From assembly GCF_003334315.1 (NCBI RefSeq), contig NZ_QOWR01000012.1: a stretch of DNA of 64,000 nt; one strand, written 5' to 3'. Positions 13,399 to 61,732 of this stretch are shown here, one piece after another. Position numbers and translations under genes: made by a program. This DNA is from Escherichia coli (lineage in GTDB: Bacteria > Pseudomonadota > Gammaproteobacteria > Enterobacterales > Enterobacteriaceae). Position 1 is the stretch's first letter. Each line of letters begins with the position of its first letter. A model generated the notes under the pieces. It had not been told where the DNA came from, made no database searches, and saw nothing but the letters and a program-made list of their open reading frames with translations.

Positions 13399-13521
13399 TT
13401 CCCTGAATGCCCGCTTAGTCGGGCATTTTCTTTTTCTCAACTTCCTGCTTTTCCTGCCGATATTTTTTCTTATCTACCTCACAAAGGTTAGCAATAACTG
13501 CTGGGAAAATTCCGAGTTAGT

Positions 13522-13551
13522 CGTTATATTGTCGCCTACATAACGTTACAT
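13522..13551 (+). promoter_or_regulatory. ModE operator at the modA promoter
   Basis: cgttatattgtcgcctacataacgttacat with TATAT/TACAT repeats just upstream of modA. Confidence 0.6.
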
Positions 13552-15029: not shown

Positions 15030-16088
15030 ATGCTGGAACTGAATTTTTCCCAGACGTTGGGCAACCATTGCCTGACTATTAATGAAACGCTGCCCGCCAA
15101 TGGCATCACTGCTATCTTTGGCGTCTCCGGTGCCGGAAAAACTTCGCTGATTAACGCCATCAGTGGACTGACGCGCCCGCAAAAAGGGCGGATTGTCCTC
15201 AATGGGCGGGTACTAAATGATGCCGAAAAAGGTATCTGCCTGACGCCGGAAAAGCGTCGCGTTGGCTATGTTTTTCAGGATGCGCGGCTGTTCCCGCATT
15301 ACAAAGTGCGTGGCAATCTGCGCTACGGCATGTCGAAAAGTATGGTCGATCAGTTCGATAAGCTGGTGGCGCTTTTAGGCATTGAACCGTTGCTTGACCG
15401 TTTACCAGGCAGCCTGTCCGGAGGCGAAAAACAGCGCGTGGCGATTGGTCGGGCTTTGCTGACAGCACCGGAATTGCTGTTGCTGGATGAACCGCTGGCG
15501 TCACTGGATATTCCGCGTAAACGCGAACTGTTGCCTTATCTGCAACGTCTGACGCGGGAAATCAACATCCCGATGTTGTATGTCAGCCATTCGCTGGATG
15601 AGATCCTCCATCTGGCAGACAGAGTGATGGTACTGGAAAACGGTCAGGTGAAAGCCTTTGGCGCGCTGGAAGAAGTCTGGGGGAGTAGCGTGATGAATCC
15701 GTGGCTGCCGAAAGAGCAACAAAGTAGCATTCTGAAAGTGACGGTACTTGAGCATCATCCGCATTACGCGATGACTGCGCTGGCGCTGGGCGATCAGCAT
15801 TTGTGGGTCAATAAGCTGGACGAACCGCTGCAAGCTGCGCTACGTATCCGCATTCAGGCTTCCGATGTTTCTCTGGTTTTACAACCGCCGCAGCAAACCA
15901 GCATTCGTAACGTATTGCGGGCAAAAGTTGTTAATAGTTATGACGACAACGGCCAGGTGGAAGTGGAGCTGGAAGTCGGCGGTAAAACGCTGTGGGCGCG
16001 TATCAGCCCGTGGGCCAGGGATGAACTGGCGATCAAACCTGGCCTGTGGCTGTACGCGCAAATTAAAAGTGTGTCGATAACCGCCTGA
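15030..16088 (+). CDS. modC: Molybdate ABC transporter ATPase
   Basis: 352-aa ORF with Walker A (GVSGAGKT), LSGGEKQR signature and C-terminal Mop domain. Confidence 0.95.
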
Positions 16089-16907
16089 TTAAATCAGGTG
16101 GCTATAAATGAACTGGGCAATGCTGTCGGTGGTGTTATCACCAATCACAATGTTGGCGCGCGCTTTTACCGCGTCATCGGCGTTGCCCATCGCCACGCCT
16201 GTACCAGCGGCTTCCAGCATACTGATATCATTAAAGTTATCGCCGAATGCCACGACGTTTTCCATCGACCAACCTTGCGCCTCAACCCATTTCGTCAAAC
16301 GTTTACCTTTGCTGTTGCCGCCGCGTGCAATATCAACCTGATCGTGCCAGGACCATTCACACTCCAGTCCCAGTTCATGTTCGACATGCTTACCAAAATG
16401 CTGCAATTGCGGCAGGTCATCGTGCGTCAGGGCGAACTTCCATACGGCGTTAACTTGTTGCGCCGTTTCAGCCAGAGAAGCGACTTGTGTGAAAGTCGGA
16501 CGCTGTTCCGGCGGCAGGGTTTGCGCCCAGTTAGATGTGCGAATGACATGCCCGGTCGGGTGCTCATAGACCATTGCATCATCGACATACATCAGACCGT
16601 GAATGTGGTGTTCATTCAGCATCTCAATGAGTTGCAGGGCTTTAATAACGGGCATTGGGTCCGCTTCCAGCACGGTTTTTGCATGATAATCATACAAATA
16701 GGTGCCATTACAGCAAATAGCAGGTGTATCCAGCGCCAGCGCCTGATAAAAAGGATGAATAGCGACGTGATGGCGACCTGTGACGATGATTAATTGATAG
16801 CCTGCTTCGCGAGCGCGGGCCAGGGCTTCTATCGATGAAGGAAGCAGGGTCTTTTTCGGGGTCAATAAGGTGCCGTCTAAGTCGAGAGCAATCACGCGTG
16901 TGGTCAT
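16089..16907 (-). CDS. ybhA: HAD-family sugar phosphatase (Cof subfamily)
   Basis: ORF trimmed to MTTRVIALDLDGTLL (272 aa), DxDGT HAD motif. Confidence 0.9.
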   Translation of the reverse strand: MTTRVIALDLDGTLLTPKKTLLPSSIEALARAREAGYQLIIVTGRHHVAIHPFYQALALDTPAICCNGTYLYDYHAKTVLEADPMPVIKALQLIEMLNEHHIHGLMYVDDAMVYEHPTGHVIRTSNWAQTLPPEQRPTFTQVASLAETAQQVNAVWKFALTHDDLPQLQHFGKHVEHELGLECEWSWHDQVDIARGGNSKGKRLTKWVEAQGWSMENVVAFGDNFNDISMLEAAGTGVAMGNADDAVKARANIVIGDNTTDSIAQFIYSHLI

Positions 16908-17025
16908 GGCGTATTCCAGATTAAGGTTAAGAATTTTCGTCTGCGCGAATGGTACACCGATACCACTATCGGACAAAATTCTGCGTTTTAATTCAGCATT
17001 CACCGCCAAAAGCGACTAATTTTAG

Positions 17026-18057
<1,032 letters not shown>

Positions 18058-43104: not shown

Positions 43105-43515
43105 ATGAAGTGGCAACAACGTGTTCGTGTCGCAACGGGTCTAAGTTGCTGGCAGATTATGTTGCATTTACTGGTAGTGGCGCTGCTGGTGGTGGGCTGG
43201 ATGAGTAAGACTCTGGTTCACGTCGGCGTGGGATTATGCGCACTGTATTGTGTCACGGTAGTGATGATGCTGGTGTTTCAGCGCCACCCCGAGCAACGCT
43301 GGCGTGAGGTGGCAGACGTGCTGGAAGAGCTGACCACGACCTGGTATTTTGGCGCAGCGCTGATTGTGCTGTGGCTGTTGTCCCGCGTTCTGGAAAACAA
43401 CTTTTTGCTGGCAATTGCAGGGCTGGCAATCCTTGCCGGCCCGGCGGTAGTGTCTTTGCTGGCGAAAGATAAGAAGTTACATCACCTTACGTCTAAACAT
43501 CGCGTACGCCGCTGA
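43105..43515 (+). CDS. ybhQ: Inner membrane protein YbhQ
   Basis: 136-aa hydrophobic ORF; 3' end overlaps the convergent ybhR. Confidence 0.82.
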
Positions 43516-50762: not shown

Positions 50763-50861
<99 letters not shown>

Positions 50862-50942
50862 ATTTCACAACAAGCACTTGTCAGCAATTTGAGAACACGG
50901 GAAAAAATTTATCTGTTTTACCGCCCATAAGCCACCGAGACG

Positions 50943-56019: not shown

Positions 56020-56135
56020 GTAGCGTAAACGCCTGATCCGTCCAACGGTTCGGATTTTGTAGGCCTGATAAGACGCGGTAGCGTCGCATCAGGCATCTGT
56101 TGCCGGATGCGGCGTAAACGCCTTATCCGTCCTAC
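56020..56135. repeat. BIME with at least two REP elements
   Basis: gtaggcctgataagacgcggtagcgtcgcatcaggca and tgccggatgcggcgtaaacgccttatccgtcctac. Confidence 0.75.
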
Positions 56136-60805: not shown

Positions 60806-61732
60806 ATGTCCGCCCAGAAACCGGGGTTGCATCCGCGCAACCGTCATCACAGCCGCTACGATCTCGCCACGCTTTGTCAGGTCAATCCTGAACTCAGGCA
60901 ATTCCTCACGCTTACACCCGCCGGGGAGCAAAGCGTAGACTTTGCCAATCCGCTGGCGGTGAAGGCGCTCAATAAGGCGTTGCTGGCCCATTTTTACGCC
61001 GTAGCGAACTGGGATATCCCCGACGGTTTTCTCTGCCCACCAGTACCGGGCCGGGCGGATTATATTCATCACCTTGCCGATTTACTGGCAGAAGCAAGCG
61101 GAACAATTCCAGCGAATGCCAGCATTCTGGATATCGGCGTTGGTGCGAACTGTATTTATCCGCTGATTGGCGTACATGAATATGGCTGGCGTTTTACCGG
61201 TAGTGAAACCAGCAGCCAGGCGTTAAGCAGTGCGCAGGCGATTATCAGTTCTAATCCGGGGCTTAACCGCGCCATTCGTCTGCGTCGGCAAAAAGAGAGT
61301 GGGGCGATTTTTAACGGCATCATCCATAAAAACGAGCAATACGACGCGACCTTGTGTAACCCGCCATTCCACGATTCCGCCGCTGCGGCACGGGCAGGTA
61401 GTGAGCGTAAACGCCGTAACCTGGGGCTGAACAAAGACGATGCACTGAACTTTGGCGGCCAGCAACAGGAGTTGTGGTGTGAAGGCGGTGAAGTCACCTT
61501 TATCAAAAAGATGATTGAAGAGAGCAAAGGCTTCGCGAAGCAGGTGATGTGGTTTACATCACTGGTATCTCGTGGTGAAAACTTACCGCCGTTGTATCGT
61601 GCCCTGACGGACGTGGGCGCGGTGAAGGTGGTTAAAAAAGAGATGGCCCAGGGGCAAAAGCAGAGTCGCTTTATTGCCTGGACCTTTATGAACGACGAGC
61701 AGCGCCGCCGTTTTGTCAATCGCCAGCGTTAA
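60806..61732 (+). CDS. rlmF: 23S rRNA m6A1618 methyltransferase
   Basis: ORF trimmed to [19 protein letters not shown] (308 aa) with NPPF methyltransferase motif. Confidence 0.9.

Follow-up and report, generated by a model that had tools for sequence, protein, structure and literature searches.

Abutting modC and ybhA stop codons in Escherichia coli: an old convergent gene boundary with zero spacing and a coding-only hairpin that is a poor intrinsic terminator

Analysis of a 64,000-nt stretch of Escherichia coli DNA (the window) confirms that the stop codons of the convergent genes modC and ybhA lie directly against each other and that their junction is a real, old and ordinary gene boundary. 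The overall results make it probable that this is a compact convergent boundary of long standing with no dedicated intergenic terminator, at which transcripts read through into the neighbouring gene, the hairpin at the junction is largely a by-product, and the zero gap is neutral.

The modC coding sequence, the terminal gene of modABC, encodes the molybdate ABC transporter ATPase and occupies positions 15030-16088 on the + strand, as given by the list of open reading frames and by RefSeq for E. coli records whose sequence is identical or nearly so; its TGA stop codon is at 16086-16088. On the - strand ybhA (16089-16907, 819 nt), which is in the same list and is annotated in RefSeq as a coding sequence abutting modC, encodes a pyridoxal phosphate / fructose-1,6-bisphosphate phosphatase of 272 residues that starts with MTTRV at 16907 and ends with a TAA, the complement of tta at 16089-16091. 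The RefSeq annotation of K-12 also has the zero gap, i.e. the end bases of the two genes are adjacent, and the same holds for the annotations of strain CP53 and of a divergent E. coli lineage that is 92.6% identical over the query. Both the open reading frame coordinates and RefSeq hence bear out the zero spacing between the modC TGA and the ybhA TAA that an earlier note on this DNA had proposed. The encoded proteins end in I-T-A-stop (ModC) and S-H-L-I-stop (YbhA), and the codons for these residues are partly complementary. The window itself is an E. coli chromosomal stretch that runs from nadA/pnuC, through gal, modE, acrZ, modABC, ybhA, pgl, bio and moa, to ybiO.

The age of the boundary is apparent from its distribution. 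A scan for YbhA with one genome per species yielded 80 Enterobacteriaceae loci, and the stop-to-stop gap between modC and ybhA is 0 in 78 of them, spanning Escherichia, Citrobacter, Salmonella, Trabulsiella, Yokenella, Enterobacter, Lelliottia, Kluyvera, Klebsiella, Kosakonia and other genera. The two exceptions are a metagenome-assembled genome (L034) with a 1-nt gap and Kosakonia pseudosacchari (L068), in which a 108-nt insert carries its own G+C-rich hairpin. Two neighbouring spacers served as controls: the divergent ybhA-pgl spacer varies widely in length across 74 of these loci, from 117 to 228 nt, and the convergent pgl-ybhD spacer is 40-65 nt long (11 loci). The varied lengths of the former imply that indels are frequent per ~150 nt, and the two insertion events at the single junction position would be close to the per-site neutral rate. 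Selection would thus not be needed for the zero gap to persist, because only one position is open to insertion and any deletion would cost a stop codon or residues at a C-terminus. Selection for zero spacing was set aside, the two junction insertions matching the per-site indel activity of the ybhA-pgl spacer. We envisage that deletion bias would shrink a spacer until further loss damages a protein, after which only an insertion at the exact position could reopen it. Within E. coli, 5205 of 5426 complete genomes share one and the same 35-nt junction sequence, a near-invariance that is as expected for coding sequence.

The bases at the junction, cctgattaaatcagg (16084-16098), have a symmetry that the earlier note described as the short dyad cctgat-taa-atcagg, with a 6-bp stem held to be weak as a terminator. 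The dyad with its 3-nt loop is exact, being really a perfect 7-1-7 palindrome, CCTGATT-A-AATCAGG, with a fold of -5.1 kcal/mol when the 15 nt are taken alone. By itself the 6-bp core is unremarkable, because 26 perfect 6-bp stems with a 3-nt loop are present in the window, as against ~16 expected for random sequence. It is, however, only the core of a larger imperfect inverted repeat at 16077-16105, revealed by an inverted-repeat search and by RNA folds and studied with a synonymous-codon null. The arms of this repeat, at 16077-16090 and 16092-16105, are 14 nt long and 86% complementary; the repeat comprises the last three sense codons and the stop of modC, and the stop, the last four codons and two further nucleotides of ybhA. 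The hairpin thereby straddles both stops and can be formed by the mRNA of either gene.

The 29-nt dyad folds with -13.4 kcal/mol as + RNA (modC-sense) and with -13.8 kcal/mol as - RNA (ybhA-sense), corresponding to z scores of -4.9 and -5.9, respectively, relative to shuffled sequences. On each strand the fold contains one mismatch and one G-U pair, with a stem of ~12-13 bp. Such folds are within about the best 0.5% of the 29-nt windows on either strand of the 64 kb; folds that are equally good on both strands are present at 39 other sites in the window.

With respect to termination, the junction resembles a canonical intrinsic terminator in that it has a stable, G+C-containing stem-loop of ~-14 kcal/mol, but differs from one in that the stem lacks a directly following U-tract on both strands, and the thresholded Term-seq tables of PMC7815308 have no 3' end there. 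In the + RNA the sequence immediately after the stem is AAAUGAAC, and the tail considered in the U-tract test, AAAUGAACUG, has no U-tract. In the - RNA the stem is followed by a spacer, CGACACAC, and then by UUUU, i.e. by UUUUAAUUU. The sequence and the fold of 16050-16112 place the U-run of the ybhA-sense RNA (CUUUUAAUUU, 16060-16069, - strand) so that it starts 8 nt past the hairpin, which is too far for a canonical intrinsic terminator; read as + RNA, these positions are rich in A and precede the hairpin. A consensus terminator scan gave no match at the modC/ybhA junction, and no Rfam family matched at E ≤1 in 15500-17200. Given the negative scan and the tails devoid of a U-tract, a canonical terminator at the junction was rejected; the dyad is a poor intrinsic terminator because a U-tract is missing directly after the stem on both strands. 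The earlier view that the dyad is weak as a terminator thus holds, albeit for a different reason: the stem is of ~12-13 bp and ~-14 kcal/mol, rather than of 6 bp and -5.1 kcal/mol, and the weakness lies in the missing U-tract.

A perfect 7-1-7 palindrome (CCTGATTAAATCAGG) that adjoins the molybdate operon might instead be a DNA site for a dimeric regulator, e.g. of the FNR/CRP type or ModE, but we regard this as highly improbable. The FNR site is TTGAT-N4-ATCAA, and the half-sites at the junction, CTGAT-N3-ATCAG, do not have the FNR spacing. The ModE operator in the window, cgttatattgtcgcctacataacg at 13521-13544, has its half-sites in the order GTTAT..ATAAC, whereas the order at the junction is ATAAC..GCTAT. 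Moreover, the window has no second copy of the palindrome with up to 2 mismatches allowed, only Escherichia has the inner bases that complete its symmetry, and an operator at the 3' ends of both genes would have no obvious use. Both an FNR and a ModE operator were rejected, since half-site spacing and order do not fit. A REP/BIME-type repeat, which would belong to a dispersed family, was also rejected, the junction sequence being present in a single copy in the window with ≤2 mismatches. Elsewhere in the window, four longer convergent spacers share repeats of 35-38 nt.

The stability of the extended hairpin raises the possibility that its structure is under selection. In a synonymous-codon null, the last five codons of each gene were recoded with the peptides kept, giving a 36-nt junction. 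The E. coli junction folds with -14.1 kcal/mol (+ RNA) and -14.3 kcal/mol (- RNA), compared with null means of -3.8 and -3.5 kcal/mol (p ~0.001 and <0.0005, respectively), p-values that must be discounted because the site was picked by eye among several junctions. Over 76 species loci the median folds are -8.1 and -8.6 kcal/mol, against -5.6 kcal/mol for the null, with a median p of 0.22; 32% of these loci have p <0.05, and 88% of those in other species have a fold more stable than their own null median. As a genus, Escherichia alone has the strong stem, folds elsewhere being ~-8 kcal/mol. Three states are specific to Escherichia and all of them add base pairs, namely Ile in place of Leu in YbhA (CTG to ATT), an AGC-encoded Ser in YbhA, and the rare Ile codon ATA in ModC; by position the YbhA residues are Ile-272 and Ser-269, at which Leu and varied residues, respectively, prevail in other genera. 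In two natural variants (L004 and L082) the YbhA AGC is replaced by AAC, which would make the stem perfect. The core that is shared among genera, CCACCUG / CAGGCGG, stems from the conserved His-Leu of YbhA and Thr-Ala-stop of ModC.

Covariation among 67 distinct sequences does not support the hairpin: paired positions amount to 69.5%, compared with 68.9% in column shuffles, i.e. there is no excess, and the covariation score of 0.094, compared with 0.086, was reached by 18 of 500 shuffles, a result within the range of related sequences that have no structure at all. These observations hint at a lineage-specific strengthening of the hairpin in Escherichia, and solid evidence of selection for structure is absent. 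Some selection for the structure is nonetheless conceivable, because the E. coli fold is better than its null, the Escherichia-specific states add pairs, and 88% of the other loci exceed their null median. A stronger proposal would be that Ile and Ser in YbhA and the rare ATA in ModC were selected in Escherichia, making the coding-only hairpin a bidirectional pause or collision terminator, or a protector of the 3' ends of both mRNAs; we consider this quite unlikely, though if it is true, selection on RNA structure has shaped two protein termini at once. On the reading that we favour, the hairpin would be largely a by-product of two coding sequences that was strengthened in Escherichia, and would act at most as a pause site or as a structure protecting 3' ends.

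Without a spacer, any 3' UTR of modC or ybhA falls inside the opposite gene. It follows from this geometry, as supported by published RNA-seq, that the two transcripts overlap whenever both genes are transcribed, because their 3' tails enter the neighbouring gene. In the ExcludonFinder study (NAR 2025, PMC12288877) modC-ybhA is among 165 convergent excludons, Table 1 giving its detection in ≥50% of the 58 RNA-seq samples from MG1655, and convergent excludons are reported typically to have a short or absent intergenic distance. Geometry and this listing thus agree with the earlier proposal that the convergent transcripts read into each other.

Mapped RNA ends give some indication of where transcription stops. 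The Term-seq tables of Adams 2021 (PMC7815308), the lists of which are thresholded, have no entry for a 3' end at the modC/ybhA boundary, and none of the four supplementary files contains 'modC'. The TERMITe supplements, lists that are also thresholded, have no mention of modC or ybhA. In Supplementary file 1 of PMC7815308, the single entry with 'ybhA' is a 3' end on the + strand (MG1655 coordinate 798381), classed as antisense to ybhA. Going by the offset from this coordinate, the modC/ybhA junction would fall at about 797,612/797,613 in U00096.3. We located the corresponding 61-nt sequence at 16807-16867 in the window, which places the 3' end at 16857 (+), ~770 nt beyond the modC stop, in antisense orientation and nearly at the start of ybhA; it is the only listed end nearby. 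A terminator-like hairpin (16817-16852, +) followed by UUUUU (16852-16856) ends at this Term-seq 3' end, as seen from the located PMC7815308 sequence and its fold. The + strand RNA that ends at 16857 may be an internal antisense RNA rather than read-through from modABC; a sigma-54 ChIP site is located at 16667-16683 (+) (PMC4591121), and conservation between E. coli and Salmonella has been reported for an antisense start site inside ybhA (PMC3419515). The hairpin and U-run at 16817-16857 fold with -13.9 kcal/mol, at a z score of only -0.57, and 60 of the 80 species loci retain a T-run of at least 5 there, a consequence of its lying antisense to conserved K/Q-K-T codons. That no end is mapped at the junction itself may only reflect low expression of modABC, because the operon is repressed in molybdate-replete or rich media, by ModE regulation.

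Untranslated antisense RNA that is C-rich and G-poor is the usual substrate of Rho, which reportedly suppresses untranslated and antisense transcription in E. coli (Peters et al. 2012). A composition scan found RNA of this type past both stops, i.e. at 16129-16448 (+), downstream of modC, with 29-38% C, 14-25% G and C/G ratios of 1.15-2.45, and at 15869-16048 (-), downstream of ybhA, with up to 42% C and C/G ratios of 1.5-2.25. Such a composition downstream of both stops would suit Rho loading. The putative likeness to Rho-dependent antisense suppression is one of composition, with untranslated, C-rich and G-poor antisense RNA after each stop; unlike established cases, the modC/ybhA locus is not among the Rho regions of PMC7815308, whose bicyclomycin data set includes no Rho region naming modC or ybhA. 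Processing of 3' ends in connection with Rho has been described (PMC6061677). We picture a simple sequence of events, in which RNA polymerase would continue on untranslated, C-rich and G-poor antisense RNA after the ribosome has left at the stop codon, and would be stopped some distance inside the neighbouring gene, at scattered positions, by Rho and/or by fortuitous intrinsic-like sites, such as that at 16857 (+).

The extended dyad could alternatively function as a bidirectional, collision-type terminator, in which the hairpin pauses polymerases arriving from both sides and head-on or trailing collisions release them, giving short, defined and overlapping 3' ends with no need for a U-tract or Rho. 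This is possible but doubtful. Termination by collision requires ample transcription of both genes, and modABC is normally repressed. A hairpin is present on both strands exactly at the convergent boundary, the codon choice of E. coli favours the stem (p ~0.001), and the junction is nearly invariant in that species; against this, the strong stem is confined to Escherichia whereas the zero gap is family-wide, and covariation is unsupportive. The anatomy of the dyad resembles that of the class described in bioRxiv 10.1101/2022.10.23.513370, which is unlike intrinsic terminators, is Rho-independent and employs the hairpin as a pause signal. As in bidirectional terminators such as ynaJ-uspE (Ju et al. 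2019; bioRxiv 10.1101/2022.10.23.513370), a two-strand hairpin lies at a convergent boundary with no canonical U-tract; in contrast with them, the modC/ybhA arms are all coding, with zero intergenic DNA and a strong stem in one genus, and since sharp overlapping 3' ends define such terminators, the likeness is one of anatomy only. No junction 3' end is present in the Term-seq (PMC7815308) or TERMITe tables, and the sole + strand end is 770 nt further on.

The listing of modC-ybhA as an excludon also has to be weighed. The window contains 11 convergent gene pairs, counted from the K-12 annotation beyond ~25818, where the window diverges from CP53. That divergence arises from an attachment site that is empty in the window, CP53 having a lambdoid prophage. 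The gap is ≤0 in 4 of the 11 pairs, namely 0 for modC/ybhA and -39, -4 and -4 among pnuC/zitB, ybhR/ybhQ and ybiO/rlmF; the table in PMC12288877 contains all four of them, and the seven pairs with positive gaps are all absent from it. Because the listing coincides exactly with the pairs of gap ≤0 (4/4 vs 0/7), the excludon call adds little: it mostly restates the geometry, is close to a geometric necessity, and is little independent evidence of regulation.

Like the convergent excludons of PMC12288877, where it is itself named, modC-ybhA consists of convergent neighbours with overlapping transcripts. Overlap of convergent transcripts, evident here from Table 1 of that study and from the zero gap, is the first criterion in the definition of a convergent excludon, and it is the only one in which modC-ybhA matches. 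The pair differs in being known by overlap alone, mutual exclusion and RNase III processing being what lends the concept its regulatory sense, and in that its overlap is forced by the zero gap, not by a terminator lying beyond the end of the neighbour. Validation with p19 dsRNA was not feasible for convergent excludons in the PMC12288877 study.

If the pair nevertheless were a regulatory excludon, molybdate scarcity would derepress modABC and produce a 3' extension antisense to ybhA that lowers YbhA, perhaps also vice versa, via transcriptional interference or RNase III cleavage of the duplex. We consider such regulation improbable. It would accord with the inclusion of the pair in the PMC12288877 list, with the generally higher synteny of excludon pairs (PMC12288877), with the gene order and zero gap being kept across the family, and with the + strand RNA end near the 5' end of ybhA. 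Inclusion in the list, however, appears near-automatic for the pairs with gap ≤0 in this window, and a neutral explanation is available for the conservation of the gap. In the literature looked at, no anticorrelation of modC and ybhA expression was found. The proteins concerned act in molybdate uptake and as a PLP / sugar-phosphate phosphatase, and we know of no functional link between them, which also counts against this form of regulation.

The modC/ybhA arrangement is already known, being present in every annotation, and the transcript overlap has been published by name. The junction leaves current views of termination unchallenged, and its importance beyond housekeeping is small. The locus is a possible natural test bed for whether a coding-only hairpin can pause or stop RNA polymerase, and for whether derepression of modABC lowers ybhA. 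It also illustrates how gene packing can, by geometry alone, give rise to an 'excludon' call. Overall, modC/ybhA is a textbook convergent pair without a spacer, at which E. coli tolerates mRNAs entering the neighbouring gene.

Among the 80 loci of the one-genome-per-species scan, only two have a non-zero gap between modC and ybhA, i.e. those of Kosakonia pseudosacchari (L068), in which a 108-nt insert including a G+C-rich hairpin (ACGCCCCTGACGCAGGGGCG) occupies the gap (L068:3320-3427), and of a MAG (L034), in which a 1-nt spacer is present (TGA-A-TCA; L034:3317-3320) and modC is additionally split by a foreign segment of about 2 kb. Two E. coli lineages (L004 and L082) carry a natural Ser to Asn substitution in YbhA (AGC to AAC) in the junction region, which converts an outer-stem mismatch or G-U pair to A-U; the amino-acid change therefore improves RNA pairing. 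In L004 it strengthens the hairpin on the modC-sense RNA, which reaches -18.4 kcal/mol when the 36-nt junction is folded.

Three other convergent pairs in the window overlap at their 3' ends, i.e. pnuC/zitB (2358-2361, 4 nt, a shared TTAA), ybhR/ybhQ (43477-43515, 39 nt) and ybiO/rlmF (61729-61732, 4 nt), all three of which are also included in the ExcludonFinder table of MG1655 convergent excludons (PMC12288877). These spacer-less pairs contrast with the convergent pairs that have longer spacers, ybhC/ybhJ (24423-24459), yvcK/uvrB (34038-34178), ybiA/rhlE (50825-50862) and ybiJ/ybiE (56101-56135), which have in common repeats of 35-38 nt, with the longest shared stretch reaching 144 nt (86% identity), that look like REP-type elements.

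With respect to the wider region, the window is near-identical to E. coli strain CP53 (11 mismatches) as far as about 25818, where CP53 carries a lambdoid prophage, located between ybhC and the bio side, whereas the window has an empty site followed by K-12-like sequence into ybhB, bioA and bioB. Both the mod genes and a molybdenum cofactor riboswitch, annotated by RefSeq upstream of moaA (35388-35532, minus strand), lie within the window.

Beyond the modC stop codon, the plus strand has an ORF of 231 residues with a GTG start (16098-16793), which begins 10 nt past the stop and covers most of ybhA in antisense orientation. It is likely to be a shadow ORF, and may correspond to the gene formerly called 'modD' in the 'modABCD operon', an operon name that occurs in the title of a cited paper. 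ChIP-seq located a sigma-54 site, IA09 (CCAGCACGGTTTTTGCA; 16667-16683, plus strand), within ybhA, in antisense orientation and directed toward pgl (Bonocora et al. 2015, PMC4591121). In a separate study, ybhA belongs to a set of just 17 genes for which E. coli and Salmonella share a conserved antisense start site (Raghavan et al. 2012, PMC3419515).

Further along the same strand, a hairpin followed by UUUUU (16817-16857), antisense to about codons 17-31 of ybhA, finishes exactly where published Term-seq data place an RNA 3' end (MG1655 798381, plus strand; PMC7815308). Its T-run (at least 5 T), which is antisense to conserved K/Q-K-T codons, is retained in 60 of the 80 species loci. The end at this element may be the true terminus of modABC read-through, or that of an internal antisense RNA.
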